Source: an uncultured Gammaproteobacteria bacterium (GTDB lineage: Bacteria > Patescibacteriota > Patescibacteriia > Buchananbacterales > UBA6539). From it: a DNA stretch of 60,986 nt. The position numbers and the translations under genes were made by a program. The DNA lies in NCBI GenBank assembly GCA_964535715.1, contig CAZHUO010000004.1, positions 1 to 60,986 of the forward strand, written 5' to 3'. The first letter of the stretch is position 1; each line of letters begins with the position of its first letter. Positions 21,555 to 38,282 of the stretch are shown piece after piece. The notes under the pieces are model-generated. The model searched no databases. It was given only the letters and a program-made list of their open reading frames with translations, and was not told where the DNA came from.

Positions 21555-21971
21555 TCATTTTTCGACGGGAAATGTCGAGATAAGCCATTTTTGTCCAGAT
21601 CTTTTATCCTCCTTTATCTGCACAAAAAATAAATCTTTATCTTTGGTTACACCAGCAAATCGATGAAAAATTTCTGAACTCTTATTGGGGTTTTCTTTAG
21701 ATACCGGTTCATATCGTGATTTTTGAATAAGCTCAATGGCACAAGGAAAATATTTAACGCGTCTTGTTTTATCAGCTAAACTTAATTTTTGATGCAAATG
21801 GTGCCAATATAAATCTAAAAATATTTTATCTTTATTAAAATAGGCTGATCTAACATAAGGCTTTCTTTTTGTTTTGATTTTAATTAATTTATAAAATACA
21901 AATGCTTTTTTATAAGATTCTGACCATTTTGTTCCGGCAACCTTACTTGTATTAGTTTGATATATCTTCAT
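21555..21971 (-). CDS. hypothetical protein co-transcribed with the recombinase
   Basis: 138-aa ORF starting 5 nt after the recombinase stop. No motif recognised. Confidence 0.6.
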   Translation of the reverse strand: MKIYQTNTSKVAGTKWSESYKKAFVFYKLIKIKTKRKPYVRSAYFNKDKIFLDLYWHHLHQKLSLADKTRRVKYFPCAIELIQKSRYEPVSKENPNKSSEIFHRFAGVTKDKDLFFVQIKEDKRSGQKWLISTFPVEK

Positions 21972-21975
21972 AATT

Positions 21976-22851
21976 CTACAATGGCGACTTAATCTGACTT
22001 AAAAACTTATTGGAAACTCTGGTATAAATCTGAGTAGTCGTCAGACTTTTATGGCCAAGCAAAGTCTGGATATAACGAATGTCTACCCCGTCTTCAAGCA
22101 GATGGGTGGCAAAGCTATGTCGCAGGCTATGGCAAGTTGCTGATTTTCTAATTTCGGCATTGGCCAAGGCTTGTTTGAAAATTTTTTCAACCGACCTTGC
22201 AGAAAGGTACAAATTATTATAACCGGAAAAAATGTATTGCCCAAATTCTTTTTGGCAAATGAAATTTTGCAGATCAGAGACAAGTCTTTCCGAAAATATC
22301 GTCTGTCTGTCTTTTCTGCCCTTCCCCTGCCTCACCCATAATATTTTATTTTCCAAATCAAAATCCTTGACTTTCAGCTTAACGACTTCAGATACTCTTA
22401 AGCCGGCAGAATACATTAAAGCCAAAATTAATTTGTGCTTTTTATTATTTACCACATCAAGGAGTTTTCCTATTTCAGCTTTAGACAAAACCACAGGCAG
22501 CTTTTTTTCGCCCTTTGGCAGGCGGAAACTATAATAAAACCGCCTTTTTTTAACCTGGCGGTAATAAAATTTTATGGCATTAAAAGCCAAGCGGGAAGTT
22601 GAAGCAGAAACCTTCCTTTTTTCCAACAAATACCACAGATAATCCTTAATATCTGAGGCAGTAATTGAGGTCGGATCTTTTTGACAGTACCTGATTAAAT
22701 CGGTATTATAAAATAAGTAGGCCTGAACGGTTTTTGGGCTAAAATTACGAATTTCCAGTTCTTTTTTTAGGGATCCCCGCACAAAAACACTATCGAATTT
22801 AATGTGTTCGGGTTTTTCCGCACTTTTTGTATGGGGTAAATCAAAAAACAT
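21976..22851 (-). CDS. tyrosine recombinase, IntI/Xer-like, without the IntI-specific insertion
   Basis: Catalytic set is present: AGLRVSE (R), GKGRKDR (K), [10 protein letters not shown] (HxxR), LLGH, QIYTRV (Y). The N-terminal [21 protein letters not shown] and LPVVLS resemble IntI1 (recalled from memory). Confidence 0.9.
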   Translation of the reverse strand: [291 protein letters not shown]

Positions 22852-22931: not shown

Positions 22932-22941
22932 TAAAAGTCAA

Positions 22942-22963
22942 CAACTTCGCCTAAAAGAAGTTG
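22942..22963 (+). other. attI-like junction
   Basis: caacttc-gcctaaaa-gaaGTTG. The GTT at 22960-22962 begins the first cassette's end-complementarity. Confidence 0.5.
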
Positions 22964-23033
22964 TACGAAATAATGAAAAATTCTTTTTGCCCTATCGGGC
23001 AAAATAATCGGGCTAATTTTAAATTTCTCTTTT

Positions 23034-24032
23034 ATGTATAATCCAGAAAAAAATATTCCATTTGAAAAATCTTCGGCTAGTGCTTCAACGGAAGAAATTT
23101 CTAAATCTTTTGAAAATGAAGAATCGGAACAAAATGATACATCGGAAGCTCAAAGTCAACCTATGCTCGAAAAAAATAAATACAGCCCCGAAGCCAGACA
23201 AGAACAAATTACAGAGCAAGCAACAATGATTCGCAAATGGGCAACAGAACAAGGACTTCAAGAAGGTAAGGACTTTTTAATAATCGAGAATATTAAAGAT
23301 GTTATTGGCAAAGATGAAGAAGTTGTACCGCATGAAACTAAAGCGTTTTATATGGCTATTCACGAAAATCAATACCGAAAATTTCGTGATTATTTTATAT
23401 CAAGATACAACGATGAAATGAAAGCAAAAGATTCAAAAAATGAAGTTCGTTTGGATTATAGTTGGGGTGGACGTTTCCTGGTCGGCTGGGCAGGAGTTCC
23501 TTGTGATACTGTTGCAGCTTCTGATATAGAAAATATAACAGTCCCTACTCATCATCAAGAGTTTAAACGTTTCTTTAAAAGTAAGGCAGGATTTGATTTT
23601 CCAACAGCAGAAACGCTAAATCCGATACTAAGGGAAATGTCAGACAAAGGTTTGGCATTATACGAAACTGCGCTAACCAAATTAAATGAATTAAAAGAAT
23701 CAGAAACTCTTCCTGACGATGGATATGGCTTAATCGATAGCGTTGTTCATGCTATTGAACTACTTAAAAAGGCTCAAAAAGGAAATGCGGTTACAGAACT
23801 CCCCGAAGAGATTCGTGGCACAATGCCAATAGAAACGCGCACTTATGCAGATCTGACATACAACGCAGAAGATATTGCCAACTTTGATCGCGTAATAAAA
23901 ATAACAGGAATAAAAATCCCTACTGAAGCAAGAATTGATAAGATATTTGATCAATTCAATTTTGATAGAAACCAAATGGAACAAATATGTAAAGATTTTT
24001 CTGATTATTTGATGGTAAAAAGAGAAATTTAA
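23034..24032 (+). CDS. cassette 1: hypothetical protein (332 aa)
   Basis: ORF bracketed by about 60-nt inverted repeats at 22961-23020 and 24031-24094. Confidence 0.6.
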   Translation: MYNPEKNIPFEKSSASASTEEISKSFENEESEQNDTSEAQSQPMLEKNKYSPEARQEQITEQATMIRKWATEQGLQEGKDFLIIENIKDVIGKDEEVVPHETKAFYMAIHENQYRKFRDYFISRYNDEMKAKDSKNEVRLDYSWGGRFLVGWAGVPCDTVAASDIENITVPTHHQEFKRFFKSKAGFDFPTAETLNPILREMSDKGLALYETALTKLNELKESETLPDDGYGLIDSVVHAIELLKKAQKGNAVTELPEEIRGTMPIETRTYADLTYNAEDIANFDRVIKITGIKIPTEARIDKIFDQFNFDRNQMEQICKDFSDYLMVKREI

Positions 24033-24090
24033 AATTAGCCCGATATATAATTCGCCTATCGGCGAAATAAGAATTTTTCATTACATCGTA

Positions 24091-24186
24091 CAACACGGCA
24101 TATCTGGTTACGGCTTTTATACAAAAGCCTCCACCCATATTTGCCTCTGCTACGCTACGGCAAACATCAGATATGCCGAAACGTTA
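24091..24186 (+). other. attC-like site 1
   Basis: CAAC-a-cggcatatctg ... cagatatgccg-aaac-GTTA, 96 nt, with two inner hairpins. Confidence 0.7.
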
Positions 24187-24325
24187 TATGAAATACATGT
24201 TTTCCTTTTGGGGCTATCGCCCCAGCTCTTAAAAAAGAATCCGATTTTGTTTTTCTTTTATTATAGAGGGGAAATTCGGTGTTTCCTCCGCTTCGCTCCA
24301 GAAACGATTTTAATTTTAGGGGAAA

Positions 24326-26728
24326 ATGAATACAATAAACCTGCATTACAACAAAATTATGACTGATAAAAAACAGCTCTCTGAGCAAGACATAAGAACA
24401 AAATTCATAACACCGGCTATTAAAAATGCCGGATGGGATGAAATGACACAGCTTCGTGAAGAAGTCTATTTTACTGCTGGACGAATTGAGGTTAAAGGAA
24501 AAATCGTCAAACGAGGTGAAGCCAAAAAAGCTGATTATATCCTTTATCACAAACATAATTTCCCAATTGCGGTTATTGAAGCAAAAGACAACAAGCATTC
24601 AATCGCAAGTGGAATCCAACAAGCACAAGACTACGCTGAAATTTTAGATATACCTTTTGCATATAGCTCAAATGGAGATGGTTTTTTAGAGCATGATTTT
24701 TTTACAGGAAAAGAAAGAAAACTATCTTTAGAAGAATTACCAAGCCCTACTGAACTTTTTGAACGATACAAAAAAGCAAAAGGAATTGATCAAGAAATAG
24801 AAAAAGTTATTAGCACGCCTTACTATTCTGACGGCTCGGGGAAAACTCCGCGATATTATCAAGAGGTTGCTATCAACAGAACTATTGAAGCAGTCGCAAA
24901 GGGACAAAAAAGAATCATGACAGTAATGGCTACCGGAACAGGAAAAACGCTTGTTGCCGGTCAAATTATTTGGCGACTTTGGAAATCTCGAAAAGCAAAA
25001 CGAATTTTATTTTTAGCAGACAGAAATATTTTGGTTGATCAGACAATGGTCAATGATTTTAAACATTTTGGCGACAAAATGATAAAGATTCAAAGAGGAA
25101 AAATCAGTAAAGCCCACGAGATTTATTTAGGACTCTATCAATCGCTCACCGGAAATGATGAAGAAAGAAACGCCTACAAGGAATTTAGTCCGGATTTTTT
25201 TGACTTAGTTATTATTGATGAGTGCCACAGAGGCAGTGCATCGGCAGATTCAGCGTGGCGAGAAGTTTTATCATATTTTGATAATGCCGTGCATATTGGC
25301 TTAACAGCAACACCAAAAGAGACAAATAAAATATCAAATCAAGAATATTTTGGAGAGCCTATTTATACCTACTCACTAAAACAAGGTATTGATGATGGAT
25401 TTTTGGCTCCATACAAAGTGATAAAAATAATGCTTAATAAAGACGTAGGAGGCTATCGACCAAGTATTTTTGATAGAGATCGAGAGGGGCGTGAAATTGA
25501 AGATAAAGAATATACGGAAAAAGATTTTGACAGAACGCTCGTTTTGACCGAAAGAACAAAAACAGTAGCAAAAGAAGTTTCGCAGTACTTAAAAAAGACT
25601 GATCGCTATGCAAAAACGATTATTTTTTGCGTTGATATTGAACATGCCGAACGAATGCGTGAGGCTCTTATTTCTGAAAATAGCGATCTTATAAAAGAAA
25701 ATCGTAAGTATATCATGAAGATTACAGGTGACGATAAAGAAGGAAAAGACGAACTAGACAGCTTTATTGATCCTGAAAATCCCTACCCGACAATTGTTAC
25801 CACGAGCAAGTTGATGACAACCGGCGTAGATGCTCAAACATGCAAACTCATTGTTTTAGATTCAAATATCAACTCAATGACTGAATTTAAACAGATTATT
25901 GGGCGCGGTACTCGTATCAATGAACCATACGGAAAAACACATTTTACAATTCTTGATTTTAGAAATGTAACCAAATTATTTGCCGATCCTGATTTTGACG
26001 GAGATCCTATTCAAATTAAAGAAATGAAACAAGGCGAAGAAATGGAAGTGGAAGAAGCGGATATTAGTGCTGAAATGGTAATCGAGAAAGAACCGCCAAC
26101 AGAAGAAAAGCCAGATATAATTGAAGGTGGTGAAATAGAAGAAGGACACCGAGAAAAGATTTATGTCGATAATGTTCCGGTAAATGTTGCTTACAAACAC
26201 ACGCAATACCTTGACGCAAGCGGAAAACTCATCACAGAATCGCTAAAAGACTATTCTCGCAAACAAATTCGTCAAAAATATGCTTCGTTAGATGACTTTT
26301 TGCAAAATTGGGACAAACACAAAAGAAAGTATTACATTTTTGAGGAACTCTCAAATCAAGGAATAATGCTTTCTGAACTCCAAAAAGACATGGGAGAAGA
26401 AGTCGGAAAAGATCTTGATTTGTTCGATATTGTGATGCACGTGGCTTTTGATAAGAAAAAACTCATGACACGCTCCGAACGTGCCAAAAAAGTAAGAAAG
26501 AAAAACTATCTAACAAAGTACTCGGAAAAAGCACGAAAAGTGCTTGATGCTTTACTGGATAAATACGCAGATGAAGGACTGGAATATATTGAAGATATTA
26601 ATATCCTTCGTATTGATCCGTTTATAACATTCGGCTCACCAGTTGAGATTGTAAAGGAATTTGGAGGAAGAGAACGCTATTTTCAAGCGGTCGAGGAGCT
26701 AGAACGAGAAATTTATGCTTTTAACTAA
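24326..26728 (+). CDS. hsdR: Type I restriction enzyme R subunit
   Basis: N-terminal nuclease region (ADYILY...VIEAK), helicase motifs MATGTGKT and DECHRG, TATP. Confidence 0.93.
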   Translation: MNTINLHYNKIMTDKKQLSEQDIRTKFITPAIKNAGWDEMTQLREEVYFTAGRIEVKGKIVKRGEAKKADYILYHKHNFPIAVIEAKDNKHSIASGIQQAQDYAEILDIPFAYSSNGDGFLEHDFFTGKERKLSLEELPSPTELFERYKKAKGIDQEIEKVISTPYYSDGSGKTPRYYQEVAINRTIEAVAKGQKRIMTVMATGTGKTLVAGQIIWRLWKSRKAKRILFLADRNILVDQTMVNDFKHFGDKMIKIQRGKISKAHEIYLGLYQSLTGNDEERNAYKEFSPDFFDLVIIDECHRGSASADSAWREVLSYFDNAVHIGLTATPKETNKISNQEYFGEPIYTYSLKQGIDDGFLAPYKVIKIMLNKDVGGYRPSIFDRDREGREIEDKEYTEKDFDRTLVLTERTKTVAKEVSQYLKKTDRYAKTIIFCVDIEHAERMREALISENSDLIKENRKYIMKITGDDKEGKDELDSFIDPENPYPTIVTTSKLMTTGVDAQTCKLIVLDSNINSMTEFKQIIGRGTRINEPYGKTHFTILDFRNVTKLFADPDFDGDPIQIKEMKQGEEMEVEEADISAEMVIEKEPPTEEKPDIIEGGEIEEGHREKIYVDNVPVNVAYKHTQYLDASGKLITESLKDYSRKQIRQKYASLDDFLQNWDKHKRKYYIFEELSNQGIMLSELQKDMGEEVGKDLDLFDIVMHVAFDKKKLMTRSERAKKVRKKNYLTKYSEKARKVLDALLDKYADEGLEYIEDINILRIDPFITFGSPVEIVKEFGGRERYFQAVEELEREIYAFN

Positions 26729-26733
26729 AAACT

Positions 26734-28164
26734 ATGTCTAATCTTTCAGGAATTATAAAATCAATCCAAAACATCATGCGTAAAGATCATGGTGTAGATG
26801 GTGATGCCCAAAGGCTTTCACAACTTGTTTGGATGCTTTTTCTTAAAATTTTTGATGAAACCGAAGAAGAAAAAGAAGTTTTGAATCCAAAATACAAATC
26901 ACCAATTTCTGAAGAATTACGCTGGAGAAATTGGGCGGAAAATGACGAAGGAATGACAGGTGATGACTTACTTGAATTTATCAACAACAAACTCTTTCCA
27001 GCATTCAAAAATTTTGAATACACCGCCAAAGATAATGAAGCTGGTTTTATTGTAAAATCTGTTTTTGAGGATAGTTTTAACTACATGAAAAGCGGAACGC
27101 TCATCCGCCAAGTGATCAATAAAATAAACGAGATAAACTTTAATCGAAAAGCCGACCGCGACCAATTCGGAACAATTTACGAGGAACTTTTGAGAGGCCT
27201 GCAAAGTGCAGGAAATGCTGGAGAATTTTACACTCCGCGCGCCTTAACTGAATTTATCGTCGAAATGGTAAATCCCAAATTGGGTGAAAGTATTTTTGAT
27301 CCGGCTTGTGGAACTGGCGGCTTCTTGACTTCGGTTATTGAACACGTGAGAAAAAATGATGTACATACCGCAGAAGACGAGGCGCTTATAAAGAAAACAA
27401 TCAAAGGCAGTGAACTCAAACAGCTTCCGCACATGCTTTGTGTAACAAATATGATGCTTCATGGAATTGCGGCACCGACCAATATCAAACGTGGCGATTC
27501 TTTAGCTCAACCGATTAAAGACATTAGCCCGGAGCAAAGAGTAGATTGTATCGTTGCAAATCCGCCTTTTGGAGGAACAGTTGGAGACGGAATTTTGGCA
27601 AACTTTCCTGCGACTTTAAAAACAAAAGAATCCGCCGACTTGTTTTTGATTCTTTTTATGAAACTCCTCAAGCCAAATGGCAGAGCTGGAATTGTTTTGC
27701 CTGACGGTTCGCTCACTGGTGATGGTGTAAAGGCTCGTATTCGTGAAAAATGGCTGGAAGAATGCAATTTGCACACAATAATCCGACTGCCAAATTCAGT
27801 TTTCTCTCCATATGCGACTGTTGCCACAAATTTATTATTCTTCACCAAAGGCGAACCTACAAAAGAAATTTGGTATTATGAACACCGACTTCCCGAAGGT
27901 CAAAAGTCATATTCCAAGACAAAACCAATTGAAGTCAAAGAATTTGAACCGATCAAAAACTGGTGGAACAATCGTACAGAAAGCGACATTTCATGGAAAG
28001 TTTCAATAGCTGACATTAAAGCCAAAAATTGGGAATTGGACATTAAAAATCCAGCTCAACAAGATGAGGAATATGAACACACAACCGAAGAACTAATTCA
28101 AAAACTAGAAACTTCACTTGATGAAAGCAAACAAATTTTAGAATCTTTAAAAGCCGAATTATGA
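26734..28164 (+). CDS. hsdM: Type I restriction-modification methyltransferase subunit
   Basis: HsdM N-terminal domain, the SAM site DPACGTGGF, and the catalytic NPPFG motif. Confidence 0.95.
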   Translation: MSNLSGIIKSIQNIMRKDHGVDGDAQRLSQLVWMLFLKIFDETEEEKEVLNPKYKSPISEELRWRNWAENDEGMTGDDLLEFINNKLFPAFKNFEYTAKDNEAGFIVKSVFEDSFNYMKSGTLIRQVINKINEINFNRKADRDQFGTIYEELLRGLQSAGNAGEFYTPRALTEFIVEMVNPKLGESIFDPACGTGGFLTSVIEHVRKNDVHTAEDEALIKKTIKGSELKQLPHMLCVTNMMLHGIAAPTNIKRGDSLAQPIKDISPEQRVDCIVANPPFGGTVGDGILANFPATLKTKESADLFLILFMKLLKPNGRAGIVLPDGSLTGDGVKARIREKWLEECNLHTIIRLPNSVFSPYATVATNLLFFTKGEPTKEIWYYEHRLPEGQKSYSKTKPIEVKEFEPIKNWWNNRTESDISWKVSIADIKAKNWELDIKNPAQQDEEYEHTTEELIQKLETSLDESKQILESLKAEL

Positions 28165-29396
28165 GTGAATTGATGCCAATAAAAAAAATTTTCAATTTCG
28201 AAAAAGGAAGTTTGCAAAGTACTAAATGCACGCCAGGTGCTTTTACTTTTGTAACCGCAGGTACGGATTGGAAAACCCACAATGAATTCACTCATGAGAC
28301 AGAAGCTTTGATTTTGGCTGTAGCCGCTGCCGGATCATTAGGCCGTTGTCATTACATAAAAGGTAAATTTATCGCAAGCGACCTTTGCTTTATACTAACC
28401 CCAAAAAATAATGAATTATTACCAGTCGATTTAGAATTTTATCATCAACTTTTTAAAGTATTAAAGGACGACTTGGTCCAAAAAACAGCCACAGGAACAT
28501 CTAAACTATCAATTAACAGATCAAACTTTGGCAATTACAAAATTCCCTATTTTGACATATCGCATCAAAGAAAGTTTAAAAATATTTTAAATAAAATTAT
28601 CGATAAAAAAGAAAAGTTATTATCTTGCAGTAAAAACCAAGAAAATTTAATTGATTTTTTAAGAAAACAAGTTCTTCATGATGTGATTTCTGGTAATCTT
28701 ACTACTGATCAAAAAACAAAAAAATATACTATTGAATCTACAAGCGAGATGTTTGAAAAAATCAGAGAAGTAAGAGAAAAAATGATAAAAGACAAAAAGA
28801 TTAAAAAAGACAAACAACTTCCACCAATCTCAATGAATGAAGTGCCGTTCGAGATACGCTCACAATATTTATGGGCAAGAGTAGACAATTTATTTTTTAT
28901 CAAAAAAGGAGAAACGGGTATAAAAAAGGCCAATCCCGGAATTTATCCATTAGTTGTTACTGCCGAAGAGCGATTAACACATAATGTTTATGAAATTGAC
29001 GGCGAGGCTATTTTAATACCAATGGTTTCGTCTACGGGACACGGTCATGCATCACTTAAAAGAATTCACTTTCAAGATGGTAAATTTGCACTAGGCTCAA
29101 TCCTTTCAGCTTTAATACCAATTACTCCAGAGTTTATCTCTGCAAAATTTTACTACTATTTTTTAAACAACTACAGAAACCAATTAATCGTAAGTAGAAT
29201 GGGTGGAGCCGCAAATGTTGCACTTACGCAAAAAGCATTAAGAAGTATAATCGTTCCTGTATTACCAATAGAGGTTCAACAGAAAGCAGTTAGATTGTTA
29301 GAGTGCGCTAATTTAATAGAAGGAAAAATAAAACAAAACAAACAAGATGCAGAAATGCTGATGCAAAGTTTTTTGGTTGAGGCTTTTAAAAGTTAA
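28161..29396 (+). CDS. hsdS: Type I restriction-modification specificity subunit
   Basis: Two target-recognition halves separated by a coiled spacer, with an ATGA overlap onto hsdM. Confidence 0.85.
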   Translation: MSELMPIKKIFNFEKGSLQSTKCTPGAFTFVTAGTDWKTHNEFTHETEALILAVAAAGSLGRCHYIKGKFIASDLCFILTPKNNELLPVDLEFYHQLFKVLKDDLVQKTATGTSKLSINRSNFGNYKIPYFDISHQRKFKNILNKIIDKKEKLLSCSKNQENLIDFLRKQVLHDVISGNLTTDQKTKKYTIESTSEMFEKIREVREKMIKDKKIKKDKQLPPISMNEVPFEIRSQYLWARVDNLFFIKKGETGIKKANPGIYPLVVTAEERLTHNVYEIDGEAILIPMVSSTGHGHASLKRIHFQDGKFALGSILSALIPITPEFISAKFYYYFLNNYRNQLIVSRMGGAANVALTQKALRSIIVPVLPIEVQQKAVRLLECANLIEGKIKQNKQDAEMLMQSFLVEAFKS

Positions 29397-29398
29397 TT

Positions 29399-30871
29399 AT
29401 GGATATATACTTTTCAGACTATTTTAAGATAAAACCGGAAGTACTTGAAAAGTATGGTGCATTTAACATTTCCCTTGTTTCCGATTTACCATTATTTATT
29501 GATCCCTTTTTACTTTTCAATAGCAAAAAACCTGAATACCAAGAATTGCATAATCAGATCATTGAATACCTAAAATTTTTAAAACAAAAATCAACAACTG
29601 GCGAAATAGAAAAAGGTGCACTTGAATCTTGGTATAAATTTAGCGAGGTAGAACAAAATTGGCTTGGTTTTGCAAAAGGTGGGAACAAGGGTAGTGGTCT
29701 TGGCATGGACTTTGCAAGTGCGCTAAATGGAAACTTGCATAAAATTTTTAAAAAATTTGGAGAGGAAGAGATAACAAAAGGCAGTCATCTTGAAAAACTT
29801 TGCCTTATTAAAGAAGGTGTAGGTAAAGATAGTATCAGCGATTTTGCGACAAATTTAATCAAAGAATTTTTACTTACATACACAGAAGAATTTGCAAAAG
29901 AACACATAGATCAATCTTTAACCGATATTTTCCGTGTTCAGAGAGTAAAATTTAATACTGAAACTGAAACTTGGGAGGAAAAAGAATTCGTTTTGCCTAA
30001 ATTCAAAAATGATTACGTATTACTTACACCAAAAGAATTATTAACAAAGGACGATACTTGGATTAACAAAACTGACTTAATAGAAGATTTTGACAGAATC
30101 CCAAATGCAATATCGAATGAACAGCTTAGATTTCAAGTAAATAACTACCTACAAAGCCAACTCACAAACGAGCCCGACAAAGAGCCAACAAAGAAAGAAA
30201 AGGGAGCTGCAATCTTTGCAACATTACAAAAGTTTCCAGAACTTATAGACTTTTTCATTAAATACAAGGAAGAAAATGGAGATTTGGCAGAGAGCATAAG
30301 TAATCAAAAAATCATTTTTTCTGAACAGGTGTACATCGCCAATGTTCAAAATTTTGTAAAAGGACTAAAGAAAACAGAATTTTATGATAGCCCACCCACT
30401 GCAAGCTTTGAAGAAGCAAAAAAGAAAATTGAGATTCTAAAAAAATTCGTTGAAAACAAAGATGGTTATCGTCTTTTTTACGACAAAAACGGAAATGTAA
30501 TCTCAAATGAAAGTGATCTACAGCTACTTTTTATGCTAGCATGTAGTGAATCAATTTTTGACATAAACAGAGAGCCAAACAATGGACGTGGTCCGGTAGA
30601 TTTTACAGTTTCATTCGGGAAAAAAGACAAAACACTAGTCGAGTTTAAATTGGCTGGCAACAAGCAATTAAAAAGAAACTTACAAAAACAAGTTGAGATA
30701 TATCAAGAAGCAAACGAAACTGACATGGCATTTAAAGTCATAATTTATTTTACTGAAGATGAAGAAAGTCGAGCAAAGAGAATTTTAAAAGAAATTGGAC
30801 TTGAAAATCAGAAGAATATAATATTAATAGACGGACGAAATGATAATAAGCCATCAGCATCAAAAGCATAA
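29399..30871 (+). CDS. hypothetical protein coupled to hsdS, with a C-terminal PD-(D/E)XK-like motif
   Basis: 490 aa, starting 2 nt after the hsdS stop. The C-terminus reads ...ESDLQLLF...GRGPVDFTVSF...LVEFKLAG (D...ExK pattern). Confidence 0.6.
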   Translation: MDIYFSDYFKIKPEVLEKYGAFNISLVSDLPLFIDPFLLFNSKKPEYQELHNQIIEYLKFLKQKSTTGEIEKGALESWYKFSEVEQNWLGFAKGGNKGSGLGMDFASALNGNLHKIFKKFGEEEITKGSHLEKLCLIKEGVGKDSISDFATNLIKEFLLTYTEEFAKEHIDQSLTDIFRVQRVKFNTETETWEEKEFVLPKFKNDYVLLTPKELLTKDDTWINKTDLIEDFDRIPNAISNEQLRFQVNNYLQSQLTNEPDKEPTKKEKGAAIFATLQKFPELIDFFIKYKEENGDLAESISNQKIIFSEQVYIANVQNFVKGLKKTEFYDSPPTASFEEAKKKIEILKKFVENKDGYRLFYDKNGNVISNESDLQLLFMLACSESIFDINREPNNGRGPVDFTVSFGKKDKTLVEFKLAGNKQLKRNLQKQVEIYQEANETDMAFKVIIYFTEDEESRAKRILKEIGLENQKNIILIDGRNDNKPSASKA

Positions 30872-31073
30872 CGAATTGTTTTCGGTCGGGGCAATTCCCC
30901 CTTTTGTTCCCCTCTTGCCCCTCCCTCAAACAAAAAAGAAATAATGTGTTTTGGGCTTCGGGCATTCACCCCTTTAGTTCCCCTCTGCTCTTCGCCCAAA
31001 ACGGAAAAACAAAACCGGATTCTTTTTTAGAGCGATTTGCTATCGCAAATCAAAGGAAAACATGTACATCATA

Positions 31074-31169
31074 TAACACGGCATATCTGGTTACGGCTTT
31101 TATACAAAAGCCTCCACCCATATTTGCCTCCGCTACGCTACGGCAAACATCAGATATGCCAAAACGTTA
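31074..31169 (+). other. attC-like site 2
   Basis: TAAC...aaaacGTTA. It matches site 1 at 93 of 96 positions. Confidence 0.7.
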
Positions 31170-31242
31170 GTTGCAATTTTTGAGTCGGCCTACTACACGA
31201 ATTAACAAACTTTATAAACATTCAATAACTGATAATTATATT

Positions 31243-31725
31243 ATGAAAAAATTTCTTAAGAACCCTCTGGTCAAGAACATTTTATCGGCATTAGCCGTGG
31301 CCATTTTCGGCTTTATACTGTTAATTCTTACATTTCTCTTTGATGCCATTTTCCAAAGTTTAGTAGATGGTATCATTAAACTTTTTACGCCAGTTGATAT
31401 CAATATGACCTGGTATTGGTTTCCGCCAATAAAACACGCTTCATTTATTGTCATCATTAGCCTAATTTCATGGCTTGTTTTCAGATCAAAACTAAAAGTG
31501 CTTTACAAAGCGATTTATATGACTGTGCCCGTTGCTACTGTTTTAGTGACTGTAGGAATGTTTTTGTATCGCTGGCCGATAGTTGTTTATTCTGTTGGTA
31601 GTTTACTTTGTATTGGCACTTTATACTATTTCTATCGCACCAAACAGCCATGGCTTTATTATTATACTGTGGTTTTAGTAGGGTTTACCTTGGCAATTTT
31701 TACTCTATTGGGTGGAGAAATCTAG
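31243..31725 (+). CDS. cassette 3: multi-TM membrane protein
   Basis: Start moved to ATG 31243, because the track start is a TTG inside the cassette-end repeat. About 4 hydrophobic helices. Confidence 0.6.
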   Translation: MKKFLKNPLVKNILSALAVAIFGFILLILTFLFDAIFQSLVDGIIKLFTPVDINMTWYWFPPIKHASFIVIISLISWLVFRSKLKVLYKAIYMTVPVATVLVTVGMFLYRWPIVVYSVGSLLCIGTLYYFYRTKQPWLYYYTVVLVGFTLAIFTLLGGEI

Positions 31726-31849
31726 TACTTATTTTTTCAAACGCAATAACCTAAATTCTTATTGATTAACGGCCGACTCAAAAACTTTGATTTTTTGCCT
31801 TCGGCATCGTTGCACTAAAAATCAACCACTCCAAGTATTCGTGGGCAAC

Positions 31850-31942
31850 TAACAGGCATTAACCGACTTCGCTCGGTTGCACCTCACTCCGTCCAAATTT
31901 GCTCCGCTACGCTCCACAAACTTCGGTTAATGCCATACGTTA
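31850..31942 (+). other. attC-like site 3
   Basis: TAAC-a-ggcattaaccga ... tcggttaatgcc-atac-GTTA, 93 nt. Confidence 0.65.
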
Positions 31943-31983
31943 TGTGAAATTTTTCTAAGGCGAGCTTCTAAATAACAACGATT

Positions 31984-32397
31984 ATGAAACTTTGTAGTGC
32001 ATGTCTATTGGGTTTAAAGTGCCGTTACGATGGCAAAAGTAAGCCCCATGAAAAAGTTATAAATTTGGCCACCAAGGAAACTTTGATTCCCGTCTGTCCT
32101 GAACAGTTGGGTGGCTTATCTACTCCGCGAAAACCTGCTGAGCAAAAAAATGGTCGAGTTATAACTGAGGATGGCGATGATATTACGATAAATTTTGAAA
32201 ATGGCGCGAAGCAGGTTTTAGAATTGGCCAAATTATACAATATAAAAAGCGCTATCCTCAAACAGCGAAGTCCTTCTTGCGGATGTGGCCAAATTTATGA
32301 CGGAACTTTTTCAGGGGCTATTATTGAAGGTGATGGTATCACTACAAAGTTTCTTAAAGAAAATGGTATCGAAGTGCTAACAGAGGATGATCTATAA
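31984..32397 (+). CDS. cassette 4: DUF523-family protein
   Basis: N-terminal CSACLLGLKCRYDG, characteristic of DUF523 (family assigned from memory). Confidence 0.7.
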   Translation: MKLCSACLLGLKCRYDGKSKPHEKVINLATKETLIPVCPEQLGGLSTPRKPAEQKNGRVITEDGDDITINFENGAKQVLELAKLYNIKSAILKQRSPSCGCGQIYDGTFSGAIIEGDGITTKFLKENGIEVLTEDDL

Positions 32398-32426
32398 TCG
32401 ACGGCTCGCTTTAGAAAAACATCACA

Positions 32427-32606
32427 TAACAAAGAATATCCGGCTCAAAAATTTTTCACTAATATATTTTTAATGTAAGAAAAATTTTCTCGACCCAAAT
32501 CCCGCGCGGTGTGAAATTAAGCCATTTGCCACTTAAAAAGTTTGGGAATAGAATAAGTTTTACGCTCTTAATATGGGCGCGGGACTTCGGATATTCTTAA
32601 ACGTTA
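32427..32606 (+). other. attC-like site 4 (long, 180 nt)
   Basis: TAAC-a-aagaatatccg ... cggatattctt-aaac-GTTA, with inner pairing cccgcgc/gcgcggg. Confidence 0.6.
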
Positions 32607-32683
32607 GAAGAAACTACTAGAAAACTTAGAAATTTCTTATGTATATCTGCTAACTAATAAAATTAATCAATAAATAAAACAAC

Positions 32684-32947
32684 ATGGAACAAGAAAAATA
32701 CAAGCCACAAGAATTCTATAAAGATACTGAAATTAACAGAGAAGACATAATTGCCGAGACGGCAATAATTTTAGAAAACACCAAAAAATTTCCTGATCCA
32801 ACCAGGGCTGATATAGTTGGAATTACCAAGGCAAAAGTAGAAATCAGAAAGGTATTAAGAAACAAAGGACTTAGTGAATGGAATATTGAATGCCTTGAAC
32901 CTGAAATTCGCCAAGATGCCCAAAAACTTCTAACTTTGTTTAAATAA
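32684..32947 (+). CDS. hypothetical protein (87 aa)
   Basis: ORF only. It is the first unit after the last attC-like site. Confidence 0.45.
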   Translation: MEQEKYKPQEFYKDTEINREDIIAETAIILENTKKFPDPTRADIVGITKAKVEIRKVLRNKGLSEWNIECLEPEIRQDAQKLLTLFK

Positions 32948-33066
32948 TTCGTTTTATTTAGGAGTAAGAAGAATTTTAGGCAAACATTTTCCCGATGTGT
33001 ATAAACTTAAACGGCCAATCATCGCATGTCAATTACCAAAAGACTTTATTATTAACTATAAATAAT

Positions 33067-33612
33067 ATGCCTCCACATTGCGACACAATGGACGGTCCCA
33101 TTGTAAAAATGGCCCAAAAGGCACTTGACGAAAAAAATATAGATTTAATTTTGCCTTATGCTTACAAAGATGGTGAAAAAGAAATTAAAGACGCTTTTCA
33201 AAAAGTTATTGCCATTAGAAATACCAATGATTCTGTCAGAAAAATTGCGGATTTATATTTCTTTGAAACAGTAGTAAGAGTTCATCGCGCAGGCGAAGGG
33301 GCTCCATATACGGGGCTAAAGCCTGCCGGCTTAAGCGAGGGTCCGATAATCCCCATTGCCGAAAAAGCAATAGAAACTGAATCGGCAGTCGAATTAATCA
33401 ATACTCTGTGCCATTATGTAGAAGAATATGTCGGCAGCCGTTTCAAAAAAATGTTAGAACTAAAAAAAGATAAAGATGCAAATGTCGATAAAGCGCGCGA
33501 ATATGTTGAGGCTATGCTTGGCCTTCAAGTTTACTCGCATAAAGTTTATTTATCACTTATAGCGGATCCCCATGCCAAAGTTGAACATAAGGCAGAAGCT
33601 CATAAACATTAA
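33067..33612 (+). CDS. conserved hypothetical protein (MPPHCDTMDGP N-terminus, DUF6448-like from memory)
   Basis: Start moved to ATG 33067. His-rich C-terminus. Confidence 0.55.
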   Translation: MPPHCDTMDGPIVKMAQKALDEKNIDLILPYAYKDGEKEIKDAFQKVIAIRNTNDSVRKIADLYFFETVVRVHRAGEGAPYTGLKPAGLSEGPIIPIAEKAIETESAVELINTLCHYVEEYVGSRFKKMLELKKDKDANVDKAREYVEAMLGLQVYSHKVYLSLIADPHAKVEHKAEAHKH

Positions 33613-33661
33613 TAATATCATGGACAAAAATCCTATAAGCGTTTGACTGTAGCCAATAACA

Positions 33662-34033
33662 ATGGATATTATCATAAAAAAATCAAAGCTAAACAAAAAG
33701 GGCATTTTTGCGGCCAGAAATTTTAAAAAAGGTGATGTCATAATAATATGGAAATCTAAAAAAATTTTATCAAAAAAGGAACTAGGCCAACTTCCCAAAT
33801 CAGAACTCCATTATATATCCAACTACAAACCAAATGAGTTTTTGCTTCAACAAGCGCCTGAAAGGTATGTAAATCATTCATGTAATCCGAATACCAAAGT
33901 AAGAAACAATAGCGATATTGCAATCAATGATATAAAAAAAGGAGAAGAAATAACCTCGGACTATTCAGTTGCCAACATCCAACAGCACTTTGTTTGTAAA
34001 TGCGGCAGCAAAAACTGCAAAGGATTCATATAA
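33662..34033 (+). CDS. SET-domain protein (putative lysine methyltransferase)
   Basis: YVNHSCNPN, GEEITSDY and a C-terminal CKCGSKNC post-SET-like motif. Confidence 0.85.
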   Translation: MDIIIKKSKLNKKGIFAARNFKKGDVIIIWKSKKILSKKELGQLPKSELHYISNYKPNEFLLQQAPERYVNHSCNPNTKVRNNSDIAINDIKKGEEITSDYSVANIQQHFVCKCGSKNCKGFI

Positions 34034-34131
34034 AAAAACAACACTTAATTATTTATTTAAATTTGAAAGGAGGCAGACCTTGATTTTAGCCTCTTTTTTG
34101 CTATAATTATATTAGAAATAACTGAAATAAT

Positions 34132-34488
34132 ATGGAAAATGAAAACTTGGACACATTTACCCTGGAAGAGCAAAATGAATTAATTGAAAGGCATTTTAGA
34201 AACGGCAAGGGATTAAGTGCTGATTATATTAACGCCTATGCTTATATTGACGCACTGCTGCGGGATATGGAGCTTGAAAAAATTAAGCCGGTGAAAACCT
34301 ACCGCGAATATTTGATGAATACGCCGGAATACTACCACCATACAATGGAACTAAGCGACGATAAGGCAATTGCCGAACTGGACCGGTTGGTTAATGAATT
34401 CAATTCGGATGTGGAAAGGATAAAGAGAGAAAAAGATGCAAATACAGTTAGAAATTTTATCCGGTCTGTAAATGATTTGGTAAAATAA
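34132..34488 (+). CDS. hypothetical protein
   Basis: 118-aa acidic helical ORF. Confidence 0.45.
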   Translation: MENENLDTFTLEEQNELIERHFRNGKGLSADYINAYAYIDALLRDMELEKIKPVKTYREYLMNTPEYYHHTMELSDDKAIAELDRLVNEFNSDVERIKREKDANTVRNFIRSVNDLVK

Positions 34489-34618
34489 AATAATAATTAA
34501 TAATAAATAATAAATTTTTAATCAATATTTAATATTAAATATTTTAATATTTATTTCAAATTTATTATTAATTATTTGATATTCTAACTTTAATTAACTA
34601 TTATATTTTATTAAACTT

Positions 34619-35308
34619 ATGAAAAAAATAACCTTATTTTTGCTGACGGTTTTTGCCATGGCTTTGGCCGGCTGTGGCCAGCAGGTGCCTGGGCTAAACC
34701 AAAACACAAACCAGCCAACGGCAAATTTAAATGAAAACACAAACGCACCCTCACCACAAAAACTGATCTATTTGGTTTCTACCGAAGATTCATTAAAATA
34801 TTGTAATGGCGCGGAAATGGATAGCGAAGGCTTCAAAAAGACAATTACAAAAGAAGTCACAACTGATATATCGGTTGAAGGCAAGACAACCTTGGAAATA
34901 GCTAAAATGATTATTGCTAATGCCACTACCGGCCAGTGCAAAAATACCTTGGAAAAAAATGATTTAAGAATAGAAGGAAACACCGCCTATTTTGCGCCGA
35001 TAGACGGCTGGACCGGAGTATCAATTGCAATGTGCAGCTGCATCCCGCAGATTGAGGTAAATTTCATGTATTTGCTTGGCATAGAAAAAGTGGTCTTTGA
35101 AAGTTCAATACAAGCTGAAGCGGCTGATTCTTTAACAGCGGAACAAAAAAGAGCATTTGAAAAATGCAAAACGCTAAGCGGCGAAGCCCGTTTGGAATTA
35201 AGCGCTTTATATGGAGAAAAGCAAATATTTTGCGCTTTTGCCGGCACTTCAGGGGAATGCACGCAGGGCGAGTTGAATAGCGGAGCTTGCTTTAAAGAAA
35301 AAAAATAA
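34619..35308 (+). CDS. lipoprotein, function unknown
   Basis: Lipobox MALAGC followed by an N/Q-rich linker. Confidence 0.65.
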   Translation: MKKITLFLLTVFAMALAGCGQQVPGLNQNTNQPTANLNENTNAPSPQKLIYLVSTEDSLKYCNGAEMDSEGFKKTITKEVTTDISVEGKTTLEIAKMIIANATTGQCKNTLEKNDLRIEGNTAYFAPIDGWTGVSIAMCSCIPQIEVNFMYLLGIEKVVFESSIQAEAADSLTAEQKRAFEKCKTLSGEARLELSALYGEKQIFCAFAGTSGECTQGELNSGACFKEKK

Positions 35309-35329
35309 TTTCAATTGTTAAACTAAAAT

Positions 35330-35794
35330 ATGGGAAAAAATAAATCTTTTTATCTATACCGCAGGCCGGTGCAGGCGTTAGTACTTAGGCCTTTGCCGTC
35401 TTCTGAAGACGAGTATCTGATTTCACAAAGAATGCCTGAGGGCTATTCTTACAGTGATGCAATGTATAGATTTCCTGCTGGTTACAGAGAATCATGCATA
35501 ATTGATTATAAAGACTATAATTATGACGGGTCGCATTCCTTGGAAAAACAAAAGGAATTTATCCTCAAAGACTTTACTGATGAGGGTTTTATGCCAGAAG
35601 AAGTCCAAGAGCTTATTGATAATCTAGAGGTAAAGGAAGGAGATACTCTTAGCTTAGGATATGACGAATCAATAAAATGGCTAAAACTTCATCCGGAATT
35701 TGAAAGCGAAGCCGGGCAAATATTCAGTAAAATAAGAAATGAAGTTCAGGCGGAAATAAGCTCAGAAAGAAACAAACATTCAAAGAGAAGATAA
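35330..35794 (+). CDS. hypothetical protein
   Basis: 154-aa ORF. Confidence 0.45.
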   Translation: MGKNKSFYLYRRPVQALVLRPLPSSEDEYLISQRMPEGYSYSDAMYRFPAGYRESCIIDYKDYNYDGSHSLEKQKEFILKDFTDEGFMPEEVQELIDNLEVKEGDTLSLGYDESIKWLKLHPEFESEAGQIFSKIRNEVQAEISSERNKHSKRR

Positions 35795-35907
35795 GAAAAA
35801 TAAAGTAAAAAAATAATAAAATAAAATAGGATTGCATTAATTTCTTGTTTCTTAATTTTTTATATAATTTAATTTATAAATTTTAACTTATTAATAAACA
35901 AAAACTT

Positions 35908-36552
35908 ATGAAAAAAATTACCGCCATAGCTTCACTCATTATAGTTATAAGCCTTGCAGGCTGTACTGCAAAACAATCTAATAAATTAAATATGGATACA
36001 AATAAAGACAGCACGATTAAATGCAATCAGGATTGCCAAAAATCAGCTTCGACCGATTTAATTCTCAATCCGGTATGCGTATACTACCCCGAAAATGGAA
36101 ATTCGGAAGAATATAAACATATATTTACAAATGAAGATTCCGATTATTTTTCGAGATTTGAAAAGCGTCTCAAAGAGCTAGAAAAAGAAGAGGATTTTTT
36201 GAATATACAACAAATATGTAAATATAATGAATCTACTATTGGCTTTTCGGCCCGAAGTAAAAAATCTGAAAAGTGGCTTGTCGGTGGCTATAAAATTATC
36301 GGGGATTTTGTTGAAGGCGATAAAGAATATTTTGCTTACGAAAAACTTGATAATAACATACAGATTAGTGGCTTTATAGACAATGGCAATAAAATAATAT
36401 TATCATCAATTAGTGAATATTACGGAATTGAACTTAAAAATTATGCTTTTGACATAATGGAAGACAAATTATTAACAATAAAAGATTGCGAAATAAATAA
36501 TAATGCAGGTGACCAAACGGTTTTTTGTTCAATAGATTTATTAAAGAATTAA
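35908..36552 (+). CDS. lipoprotein, function unknown
   Basis: Lipobox ISLAGC. Its 5' leader is similar to those of 34619 and 36592. Confidence 0.65.
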   Translation: MKKITAIASLIIVISLAGCTAKQSNKLNMDTNKDSTIKCNQDCQKSASTDLILNPVCVYYPENGNSEEYKHIFTNEDSDYFSRFEKRLKELEKEEDFLNIQQICKYNESTIGFSARSKKSEKWLVGGYKIIGDFVEGDKEYFAYEKLDNNIQISGFIDNGNKIILSSISEYYGIELKNYAFDIMEDKLLTIKDCEINNNAGDQTVFCSIDLLKN

Positions 36553-36591
36553 AATTATTAATAATTTAACTTATTAATAAATTAATAACAT

Positions 36592-37263
36592 ATGAAAAAA
36601 ATAATTTTAACAGCGTTAATCGGGACAAGCCTAATTTTGGCCGGCTGTGCCCAACAAACGCCTTTACAAAACCAAAATACAGAACAGCCGGCATTAAACC
36701 AAAACACCAACTCGGCTGATTCTGAAATAGATCAAATTGAATCAAGATGCAGCTTAGAGCCGCAAAGCGGAAACTGCAAAGCCTATATGCCAAAATATTA
36801 CTTTGATCAGAAAGAAAATGCCTGCAAGGAATTCGTCTGGGGCGGCTGCAACGGTGTAGTTCCGTTTGAAACTTTAGTTGAATGCCAAAATGCCTGCGAA
36901 AATAAAGCGGCAATGGCCAATCCCGCTTCGACTAACTGTCTTGAAAAAGGCGGGACAATTGACATCCGAAAAAACAAAAACGGCGAATACGGAGTCTGCC
37001 TTTTTGAAGACAACCGGCAGTGCGAGGAATGGGCGCTTTTACACGGCGAATGTCCTTCTAATGGAGCAAAAATTACCGGCTTAGAAAATGAAGCGGAAAT
37101 TTACTGTGTTATTACCGGCGGGCAACTTCAGGGTCTTGATACAGAAACTCCGATGTGCAAGCGAATAGACGGTACACTTTGCAATGCCCAGGCAAACCTG
37201 GACGGCGACTGTCCAAATCCGCATGATCCAAATCCCAGCGCCGGCAACGTGGAAGCATTGTAA
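36592..37263 (+). CDS. lipoprotein with a Kunitz/BPTI-like domain plus two DUF333-like repeats
   Basis: Lipobox LILAGC. Cysteine spacing is 8/15/7/11/3 with FVWGGC (36748-36897). This is followed by NPASTNCLEKGG...CEEWALLHGEC and a second, degenerate repeat. Confidence 0.7.
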   Translation: MKKIILTALIGTSLILAGCAQQTPLQNQNTEQPALNQNTNSADSEIDQIESRCSLEPQSGNCKAYMPKYYFDQKENACKEFVWGGCNGVVPFETLVECQNACENKAAMANPASTNCLEKGGTIDIRKNKNGEYGVCLFEDNRQCEEWALLHGECPSNGAKITGLENEAEIYCVITGGQLQGLDTETPMCKRIDGTLCNAQANLDGDCPNPHDPNPSAGNVEAL

Positions 37264-37296
37264 ATTAATAATAGTATATTTTAAAATTATAAAAAT

Positions 37297-37530
37297 ATGA
37301 ACAACGAAAAAGAAATAAAATTTGAAAATTATTTGGATAATGAAGAAAGGGAGGCTAGAGATTGGCTTAAATCGGGAATGGAAGAAATTGGACTACAAAA
37401 AGATTTGATTGAAAGTCGTTTGGCGCTCTTTATTCAGTTTATAAGAACCATAAAGCAATCATCTGGATTTAAAAAACCGATGGAAATTGCAAAAGATTAT
37501 TTGGAAGACATAAAAAAAGCGAAAGAATAA
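37297..37530 (+). CDS. hypothetical protein
   Basis: 77-aa ORF. Confidence 0.4.
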   Translation: MNNEKEIKFENYLDNEEREARDWLKSGMEEIGLQKDLIESRLALFIQFIRTIKQSSGFKKPMEIAKDYLEDIKKAKE

Positions 37531-37626
37531 CACAGTTGACTTTAAATATTTTTTGTGTTAACCTTTTTTTATTAATGTTTTTTTATTGGCCTTTTTAAAA
37601 ATGGACTTTGTCCAAGGAGTAAAGCA

Positions 37627-37998: not shown

Positions 37999-38014
37999 CC
38001 CAGAAAGGCGTCAA

Positions 38015-38244: not shown

Positions 38245-38262
38245 CAAATCCCTTTTTTTATT
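38234..38262 (+). terminator. intrinsic terminator
   Basis: aaaggga-ttagcaaa-tcccttt followed by tttt. Confidence 0.65.
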
Positions 38263-38273
38263 ACCAATAAAAA

Positions 38274-38282
38274 TGGTATAAT
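38274..38282 (+). promoter_or_regulatory. extended -10 promoter element
   Basis: TGgTATAAT, 38 nt upstream of the next ATG. Confidence 0.4.

Follow-up and report, generated by a model that had tools for sequence, protein, structure and literature searches.

What builds a row of hairpin-ended gene units beside a tyrosine recombinase gene in the chromosome of a Patescibacteria genome? The locus in question lies in contig CAZHUO010000004.1 of assembly GCA_964535715.1, of which we analyzed a 61-kb stretch (60,986 nucleotides, G+C 36.8%; hereafter the window, whose numbering is used for coordinates, while labels of the type L081 denote fetched comparison loci). Its recombinase gene (21976-22851, minus strand) encodes an IntI/XerA-like protein of 291 aa and is divergent from an array of four units on the plus strand. 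We consider it probable that the locus is a chromosomal integron-like gene-cassette platform, in which the recombinase joins a primary site, attI, with the folded attC-like sites of circular cassettes. The parts of such a platform, their conservation, the exchange point, a two-way association of recombinase and sites, the turnover of cassettes and an asymmetry between the strands are all visible in the data.

The four units end in hairpins that read TCNNNYAAC, A, one side of an 11-bp stem, a loop, the other side of the stem, NNAC and GTTRNNNGA; as in integrons, we name the outer boxes R'' and R' and the inner boxes L'' and L'. The G of the GTT lies at 24183, 31166, 31939 and 32603 in the four attC-like sites. 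A first-pass annotation of this DNA had claimed that the sequence following each GTT is the reverse complement of the sequence preceding the YAAC of the next site, and this chain rule holds: in an anchored, ungapped comparison over 30 nt, the starts of the cassettes are complementary to the 5' flank of the next site at 26, 24, 15 and 24 positions, compared to 7-13 of 30 for non-consecutive combinations of starts and ends. The three complementarities that had been quoted as examples are all present at their positions. The duplex energies of the consecutive pairs are -81.6, -82.0, -29.6 and -67.5 kcal/mol, and those of the other combinations range from -12.6 to -32.2 kcal/mol. When circularized in silico, as had been proposed, each cassette folded as one continuous long hairpin with the predicted loops.

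Cassette 1 (22961-24183, plus strand) contains an open reading frame (ORF) at 23034-24032 (332 aa) without a family match. Its 5' arm (22960-23033) pairs with its 3' arm (24018-24094), and its site consists of R'' (24086-24094), A (24095), L'' (24096-24106), L' (24168-24178), AAAC (24179-24182) and R' (24183-24191). Cassette 2 (24184-31166, plus strand; 6.9 kb) carries four genes, which make up a complete type I restriction-modification system, hsdR (24326-26728), hsdM (26734-28164) and hsdS (28161-29396), and a PDC-M36A-like candidate defence gene (29399-30871). Its 5' arm, starting at 24183, pairs with a 3' arm ending at 31077 over about 70 nt; an extension of this length had been described for cassette 2 alone, but is also found in cassette 1. 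The second site (R'' 31069-31077, L'' 31079-31089, L' 31151-31161, R' 31166-31174) is about 94% identical to the first over 113 nt. In cassette 3 (31167-31939, plus strand), an ORF of 184 aa without a family match runs from a TTG start at 31171 to 31725; the extension stem pairs 31177-31190 with 31771-31784, and the site comprises R'' (31845-31853), L'' (31855-31865), L' (31924-31934), ATAC and R' (31939-31947). The insertion that had been noticed here in place of the CA side of the internal loop is real, but measures 60 nt (31785-31844) instead of 61. Cassette 4 (31940-32603, plus strand) codes for a 137-aa member of the 2-thiouracil desulfurase family PF04463 (31984-32397), and its site (R'' 32422-32430, L'' 32432-32442, L' 32588-32598, AAAC, R' 32603-32611) has a loop of 145 nt. 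Both extension arms of cassettes 1 and 2 also bear side hairpins with a C-TATC-G loop, or C-GATA-G on the bottom strand (22985-23004, 24051-24066, 24210-24223 and 31034-31051), so that the long stem becomes a four-way junction; the same side hairpin occurs next to R'' in L002, at about 9500.

A covariance model (R2) built from 24 full sites, three of them from the window and 21 from relatives, yielded exactly four matches in the window, all on the plus strand (24084-24193, 89.9 bits; 31067-31176, 81.4 bits; 31843-31949, 69 bits; 32420-32613, 77.1 bits), with the next best at 10 bits, and found more sites in related loci. The site at 31067-31176 had been left out of the training set, though it is nearly identical to the first site. 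A loop-trimmed model (R1) could not span the real loops and returned only half-sites; it was replaced by R2.

The attI-like primary site, aaaagtcAACAACTTCGCCTAAAAGAA^GTTGTACGA (22933-22968, plus strand; the caret marks the junction, with the GTT at 22960), consists of a left half that is kept in relatives and a right half that belongs to cassette 1. Its junction, AACAACTTCGCCTAAAAGAA^GTTGTACGA, is located about 110 nt upstream of the recombinase gene start on the opposite strand, and it also appears as a weak covariance-model match (22945-22970, 10 bits). We aligned the attI junctions of the window, L081, L084, L023, L053, L038, L098, L124, L126, L145, L130, L108, L156, L197, L192 and L045. 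To the left of the GTT, at least 15 arrays share a conserved attI, which reads roughly YTTCGYATAWAA, then 4-6 nt, then GTT; examples are CTTCGCCTAAAAGAA^ in the window, CTTCGCATAAAAGAA^ in L081, CTTCGTATATAAGGA^ in L098 and GTTCGTAAATAAGAC^ in L045. Divergent arrays have this junction about 100-220 nt upstream of where the recombinase gene begins in the alignment, and L045 has it past the gene's 3' end. Each genome has its own 9-nt stretch starting with the GTT, and wherever the first attC could be identified as well (six cases), this stretch is the complement of the R'' of the first cassette.

These junctions also locate the point of exchange. The AC that precedes the GTT is at least 90% conserved in attC sites but absent from attI junctions (GAA^GTT), which puts the exchange 3' of the AC, at or inside the GTT. 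The same position is indicated by a cassette that L166 and L192 have in common (94% identity over 984 nt) and that is preceded by an attC in L166 and by an attI in L192, where the junction is 187 nt away from the start of the recombinase alignment (query residue 28): the homology begins exactly at the G of GTTATATGA. In integrons, the crossover is G^TT. The earlier placement of the crossover within ACGTT is thus supported and narrowed to the GTT, and the attI junctions and the L166/L192 cassette agree with integration and excision of circular cassettes as the cause of the pairing, as had been suggested.

At the distal end of the array, the sequence GTTAGAAGAaa (32603-32625, plus strand) has no complementary partner downstream. 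The full 9-nt complement of this last R' (TCTTCTAAC) is absent from the whole window, in which no strong duplex partner was found either, and the region 32600-40700 contains only AT-rich palindromes, with no further sites or decayed attC-like inverted repeats. The simplest reading is that the first insertion left the right half of the ancestral attI at this end, as the last R' is then expected to be without a partner. A candidate partner for the last R' (GTTAGAAGA), the 8/9 match CTTCTAAC at 32927-32934, was rejected; it lies in an ORF and is probably due to chance. It coincides with the 3' end of this 87-aa ORF (32684-32947), is followed by TTT GTT and represents either chance or a degenerate remnant of a terminal site.

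About 200 more sites, taken from other genomes and from metagenomes, have the same folded-site architecture. The R box comprises 9 bp, GTTRNNNGA over TCNNNYAAC. In two independent sets, the R' of one site was complementary to the R'' of the following site at 9/9 positions in 15/27 and 28/63 pairs, compared to 2.4-3.5% of random R'/R'' pairs (3.5% for the latter set), so that the pairing clearly exceeds that between random units. Positions 8-9 of the R box co-vary, being GA with TC or GC with GC, in matching pairs. Beyond the R box, position 11 was never paired (41/41; A opposite C, n = 34; A opposite G, n = 7), while position 10 was A opposite A in 23/41 cases and an A-T pair is possible elsewhere in the family. 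The internal loop of AA opposite CA that had been described 9 bp from the GTT is therefore confirmed for its second position, but is an A opposite A at its first position in only part of the family. An ungapped extension stem of at least 9 bp was present in 23/41 cases (mode 15 bp) and in about 0.5% of shuffled pairings; its length is about 15 bp in the family and reaches up to about 70 nt, with side hairpins, in the window.

Further inside the hairpin, the spacer between the boxes is asymmetric: its 5' side is a single A in 35/50 sites, and its 3' side reads NNAC. In Saccharibacillus the spacer has 4 versus 7 nt and thus the same 3-nt asymmetry. The loops of the common fold are present both in the circularized cassettes and in further members of the family, with the correction that the loop of the site at 31166 is effectively 2x5 and not 1x4, as its L stem carries a C.A mismatch at one end. 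The L stem itself is uninterrupted over 11 bp and has an ATAT/GTAT core (consensus c.g.aTAT.cG), and the first irregularity past it is a distal 2-nt bulge or mismatch; beyond the stem, the two sides have the conserved sequences g(t/c)t(c/a)g and (a/c)AAC(a/t)T. The L boxes had been regarded as unrelated in sequence, which is wrong, as they share the ATAT/GTAT core and as at least 120 metagenome contigs contain exact copies of a 19-nt motif (YAACACGGYATATCTGGTT) from the 5' half of the site, which covers the end of R'' and L''. A strong covariation count on stem-selected sites was set aside as circular, because sets of sites obtained by covariance model or stem are partly selected for pairing; the motif-selected and chain-rule tests are not circular.

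Conserved motifs also occur in the seemingly variable loop. An alignment (A4) of the window, L017, L030, L080, L084 and others contains C.CCCAWATTT, the terminal loop of longer sites has a GC hairpin followed by ATTATACC, and the first three sites of the window have TTTGC.TC.GCTACGCT in common. Possible functions of these motifs are those of a host-factor site, a promoter or a priming signal. Two Patescibacteria loci (L029, 8532-8670 and 9728-9866; L033, 9690-9834) have, upstream of the recombinase gene, a strand-symmetric repeat of another kind, TTTCGTCCAAC GT GGAGCTTTG ... AC GTTACGAAAA, with 2-nt spacers on both sides and matched on both strands.

Are such sites tied to the recombinase, or did palindromic intergenic repeats of the REP/MITE type come to lie near its gene by chance? 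The high copy number of the site sequence in metagenomes and the existence of ORF-less units of 148-199 nt between full sites (L165, 2938-3086; L140, about 4285-4535, minus strand) would fit such passive repeats. In a set of 85 loci (0.94 Mb) fetched by similarity to the recombinase, the covariance model (E < 0.01) gave 85 matches in about 33 loci, and all but one of these matches fell into two fixed arrangements. In Patescibacteria and others, minus-strand sites lie upstream of the gene in a divergent array, and in Spirochaetota, Bacillota and Thermodesulfobacterium, plus-strand sites lie downstream of the gene in a co-directional one. Conversely, loci were fetched by the 19-nt motif, and thereby chosen without reference to the 3' half of the site. 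Here, an exact 11-nt complement followed within 260 nt in 33/73 evaluable motif matches (chance of an exact 11-mer in 260 nt, about 6e-5), and in 29 of the 33 it was succeeded by A[AT]AC GTTR. The covariance model identified 143 sites in 80 of these motif-fetched loci, in arrays of up to eight, and where the contig included the start of the array, the same recombinase family was encoded beside it (14 loci), divergently in 13 and co-directionally in L123. Since each of the two, used alone to fetch loci, finds the other, recombinase and sites are associated both ways. A fixed orientation and position relative to the recombinase gene over dozens of loci and several phyla, together with attI junctions and a chain rule that joins neighboring sites, leaves passive repeats with hardly any credibility.

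The platform occurs in Patescibacteria, Spirochaetota, Bacillota and other phyla. Two of its hosts are cultured Bacillota, in both of which the array is downstream of and co-directional with the recombinase gene: Saccharibacillus kuerlensis DSM 22868 (L045, NZ_KB899282, 10001-12913) has an attI, GTTCGTAAATAAGAC^GTTATAAGA, and three sites that are chained at 9/9 positions, and Desulfitobacterium sp. Sab5 (L075, NZ_CP172056, 10001-20792) has at least 10 sites. Owing to these two hosts, the platform is accessible to experiments. More than one copy was found in an Undinarchaeales metagenome-assembled genome (two loci, L009 and L031) and in a Persicobacter replicon (three places). The cassettes are mostly 0.4-1.6 kb in size, and related arrays carry DpnI, Eco47II, DNA methyltransferase and NUDIX genes. 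Array content differs between syntenic relatives, as in the window compared to L081.

The two strands of the sites are not equivalent. The bottom strand folds more stably in 57/62 sites (Wilcoxon p = 2e-10); the invariant mismatch at position 11, which is A.C in the top strand, becomes a G.T wobble in the bottom one; and internal mini-hairpins with a C(GNA)G triloop, which is especially stable in DNA, are more numerous on the bottom strand (16) than on the top strand (2). From these three asymmetries we infer that the bottom strand is the folded DNA strand, which matches the use of the bottom strand in integrons. The strand bias also bears on a reading in which hairpins and end pairing act in transcripts, as terminators, insulators or mRNA-stabilizing pairing of untranslated regions, with recombination being incidental or extinct. 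In cassettes 1 and 2, the arms do take up all of the 5' and 3' untranslated sequence, and some loops are conserved in sequence. However, it is the antisense strand that folds better and that has the DNA-type triloops, no Rfam family was found in the window, and the terminator-like matches lie on the minus strand in numbers that equal those of shuffled sequence, without significant enrichment. An action at the level of RNA would, moreover, leave the attI junctions and the exact boundary of homology at the GTT unexplained. We therefore rate elements that function only as RNA as very unlikely, although a role in RNA and a role in recombination are not mutually exclusive.

We then asked what kind of recombinase serves the sites. 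The protein exceeds the cutoff of the NCBIfam model NF040815 (recomb_XerA_Arch; 234 bits, cutoff 220), to which NCBI assigns the product name 'site-specific tyrosine recombinase/integron integrase', and remains below that of the integron integrase model TIGR02249 (222 bits, cutoff 265). The match to TIGR02249 is broken at about profile position 180, where the IntI-specific insert begins. The top sequence match in the PDB is VchIntIA (IntI4; 2A3V), which aligns in two stretches separated by 19 residues in the query versus 62 in IntI4. By BLASTP, the recombinase is 31% identical to IntI1 with 46 gap positions, about 42 of which fall at the position of the additional domain, and the missing region includes that of the ALER motif. 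An AlphaFold2 model (pLDDT 84.7) has no extra helix between the helices 188-199 and 218-231, and a fold search ranked 2A3V first, followed by the XerA structures 5HXY and 4A8E. The catalytic residues R, K, HxxR, H and Y are invariant across the family alignment. The recombinase thus sits between IntI and XerA and is without the IntI-specific additional (I2) domain, which is also missing in 10/10 array-linked relatives tested from four phyla. Close homologs are from Patescibacteria, e.g. Candidatus Buchananbacteria.

Longer homologs of 343-381 aa were suspected to be I2-bearing IntIs, which was ruled out, as their extra residues form an N-terminal extension. In this subfamily (P0048, P0060, P0082, P0089, P0098, P0099, P0101, P0109 and P0117, about 50% identity), the extension is conserved and about 65 aa long (FPYNP..YI.KIK...GYKWH...KYWS.P), and it may be an extra DNA-binding arm.

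An ordinary integron, with a regular IntI including its additional domain and regular attC sites that have merely diverged, would account for the presence of a recombinase, an attI, YAAC...GTT sites and a boundary of the G^TT type, and the TIGR02249 score of 222 bits is in line with it. The domain is, however, missing here and in all array-linked relatives tested; the L stems are 11 uninterrupted bp; the spacer is 1x4-5 and not roughly symmetric; and R2 gave no match (E <= 10, filters off) on the five cassette attC sites of one class 1 integron. A canonical integron is accordingly extremely improbable. We had also considered that the Spirochaetota arrays with a short recombinase might be canonical Treponema integrons, which they are not: the latter use an integrase of 410 aa, and a G protrudes from their attC sites (PMC3607928).

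The likeness to integrons (class 1 integrons, the Vibrio superintegron and the VchIntIA-VCR complex 2A3V) is nevertheless extensive. It includes a recombinase gene next to a primary site and an array in one orientation of mostly single-ORF cassettes, imperfect R''-L''...L'-R' hairpins with an outer AAC...GTT and inner L boxes, an exchange at the GTT by which each R' belongs to the next cassette, homogeneous site sequences within a lineage, variable array content including defence genes, a bottom strand favored for folding, and IntI4 as the best match in both sequence and fold. The platform differs from integrons in that its recombinase has no additional domain, the first 11 bp of the L stem are free of extrahelical bases, and the spacer is asymmetric with 1 versus 4-5 nt, whereas class 1 examples in L086 are roughly symmetric. 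It also differs in the 9-bp R box followed by a conserved A.A/A.C mismatch, in a hairpin that runs 15-70 nt into both cassette ends, in the conservation of L-box and loop sequences and in hosts that include Patescibacteria and Bacillota.

If not an integron integrase, the recombinase might be a chromosome-dimer-resolution Xer, with the attI being its dif site and the array a pile-up of Xer-hijacking (IMEX-like) elements. The score above the NF040815 cutoff and the XerA structures as second-best fold matches are compatible with this, as are the dyad symmetry in the attI of the window (ACAACTTC-N8-GAAGTTGT; 8-bp arms, 8-bp spacer) and the location of the recombinase gene beside ruvC in L084. The resemblance extends to single-recombinase Xer systems (archaeal XerA/dif, XerS/difSL and XerH/difH), where difSL adjoins xerS. 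Such systems act on one double-stranded site of 28-31 bp in dimer resolution, and we know of none with cassette arrays or hairpin sites. XerCD on CTX phage and other IMEX at dif likewise combine an Xer-type recombinase without I2 with a folded single-stranded hairpin, the attP in CTX phage, and a double-stranded chromosomal site. A single strand exchange is then resolved by replication, and tandem arrays can build up at the site. A dif-type site for dimer resolution has two inverted 11-bp arms around a 6-8-bp spacer. IMEX are phages or genomic islands that bring replication or transfer genes of their own and use the host XerC/D and the 28-bp dif at the terminus; the units of the platform are instead small promoterless cassettes of one hairpin family with a dedicated single recombinase gene adjoining. 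A comparison to the pdif modules of Acinetobacter plasmids holds insofar as accessory genes are bracketed by Xer-type sites in varied contexts. The pdif sites alternate in orientation and are short double-stranded targets of XerC/D, with no hairpin, adjacent dedicated recombinase or attI.

Several further observations disagree with a dif site at this locus. The dyad of the attI is kept only in part, since its right arm is derived from the cassette and varies with the first cassette among relatives. Some genomes have multiple copies (the Undinarchaeales and Persicobacter examples), and the platform is present in Bacillota and Spirochaetota, which normally have XerC/D; in these phyla it sits at the gene's 3' end and the arrays are co-directional. 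The cassettes have no recombinase of their own and share one family of sites, which is integron-like behavior. Finally, there was no terminus-like switch in GC skew at 22.9 kb, where the minimum tracks gene orientation, though this test is weak and uninformative. Taken together, we regard exploitation of an Xer/dif system as unlikely, if somewhat less so than the alternatives discussed above.

For the integron-like platform that we favor, the mechanism could be as follows. The recombinase would recombine the double-stranded attI, with the crossover at the GTT at 22960, with hairpin sites on promoterless circular cassettes. Each integration would split the hairpin of the cassette at the GTT, by which the 3' side of the stem (R' and extension) would become the first bases of the cassette and the 5' side (extension and R'') would come to sit just before the cassette's own L-box hairpin. 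Because of this split, the start of a cassette would pair with the next site and not with its own. By analogy with integrons and with the integration of CTX phage by XerCD, the bottom strand of the cassette is proposed to fold as single-stranded DNA in vivo, with one recombinase dimer on the R and L arms of the folded strand and a second dimer on the attI, whose bottom strand would present the R-box complement, 4-5 nt and a TATA(T/A) core, in a spacing like that of the AAC-A-CGGC-ATAT side of attC. Exchange of a single strand, presumably the bottom one, would take place at AA^C, equivalent to G^TT in the top strand, and replication would resolve the product. Instead of the extrahelical bases that I2 reads in integrons, the 3-nt asymmetry of the spacer and the helix defects that bracket the protein-sized core (9 bp plus mismatch on the R side, 11 bp plus bulge on the L side) might set orientation and strand choice. 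As the extension stem is present only when the cassette's own ends are joined, it should stabilize folding of the excised circle and favor re-integration over folding within the array. XerCD, which recombine the folded single-stranded hairpin of CTX phage, provide a precedent for hairpin recombination without I2.

A number of points weigh against this interpretation. The recombinase, passing the NF040815 cutoff, could also, or instead, be a housekeeping Xer. A canonical IntI encoded elsewhere in these genomes, beyond the window, may act in trans. The site sets obtained by covariance model and stem were, as mentioned, partly chosen for pairing. Nor is a promoter of the array established: a sigma-70-like match, TTGACA-17-TATTAT (22681-22709, plus strand), lies inside the recombinase ORF and points to the array, a placement like that of Pc in class 1 integrons, but it is kept only in L081, the closest relative, where this may be mere coding conservation, and promoter-like matches in the region are no commoner than in shuffled sequence. 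According to Messier and Roy 2001, as cited in PMC9668308 and PMC4889954, IntI requires the additional domain for its activity.

Cross-unit pairing as such is already known as a mark of integron cassettes. An I2-bearing integrase is what defines integrons and what searches for them look for, and I2 is regarded as the innovation that enabled recombination of single-stranded hairpins. The system that carries the pairing here appears as an undescribed variant in the literature we searched, with an integrase lacking I2 and attC hairpins that have no extrahelical bases and extend into the cassette ends. No description of integrons in the candidate phyla radiation (CPR)/Patescibacteria or of domain-less integron integrases was found in a full-text search of incomplete coverage, so that an earlier description is possible. 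Cury et al. 2016 discarded recombinases without the domain as 'not IntI' when these lay near attC, and in Firmicutes they found no complete integron. In Ghaly et al. 2022, archaeal IntIs had to have the additional domain.

The arms of the cassettes are also found in other loci. Those of cassette 1 (5' about 75 nt, 3' about 62 nt) are found at 70-85% identity in four other metagenome cassettes (L156 4241-4784, shared by L156 and L190; L132 247-1272; L172 735-1895; L175 901-1803), with compensatory changes in the distal stem, while the ORFs between them (332, 107, 261, 301 and 214 aa) have no credible homology to each other by BLASTP and MAFFT. The arms of cassette 2 likewise recur elsewhere, and both families of arms have the small C-TATC-G-loop hairpins at matching positions. 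Either the cargos evolve extremely fast between constant arms, or different ORFs are placed in one hairpin 'chassis'. A broader, and rather tentative, proposal is that the platform may represent an unrecognized widespread integron lineage that never had or has lost I2, as an alternative or ancestral form of hairpin recombination, whose recombination hairpins reach 15-75 nt into both ends of the cassettes and whose cassettes are born by placement or replacement of ORFs in a hairpin chassis. If so, the chassis would bear on the unsolved origin of gene cassettes, and the lineage would exist in Patescibacteria and Gram-positives that current definitions score as being without complete integrons. 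A platform that does without I2 and extrahelical bases would widen the host range of cassette capture to these groups. It would also give a natural comparison for strand and orientation choice, for which the asymmetric spacer, the A.C/G.T asymmetry and the outer mismatches are candidates, and would supply candidates for an ancestral state intermediate between Xer and IntI. As to CPR biology, the array is a depot of defence genes in tiny genomes.

The surroundings of the array are those of an ordinary chromosome. On one side, threonyl-tRNA synthetase (ThrRS), MiaB/MiaA and GatB are encoded in synteny with relatives, and on the other side small accessory-looking genes are followed by DnaE. A second variable slot lies directly 3' of the recombinase gene and is occupied in the window by a 138-aa ORF without a family match (21555-21971). 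In L081, this slot contains an insertion (4787-5639) with a PDDEXK_3 gene, which is missing in the otherwise identical L082, and in L085 a GIY-YIG gene (3375-3662) that is missing in L084. Beside the cassette array of another relative, a diversity-generating retroelement with reverse transcriptase and bAvd is located (L083, 889-2266).

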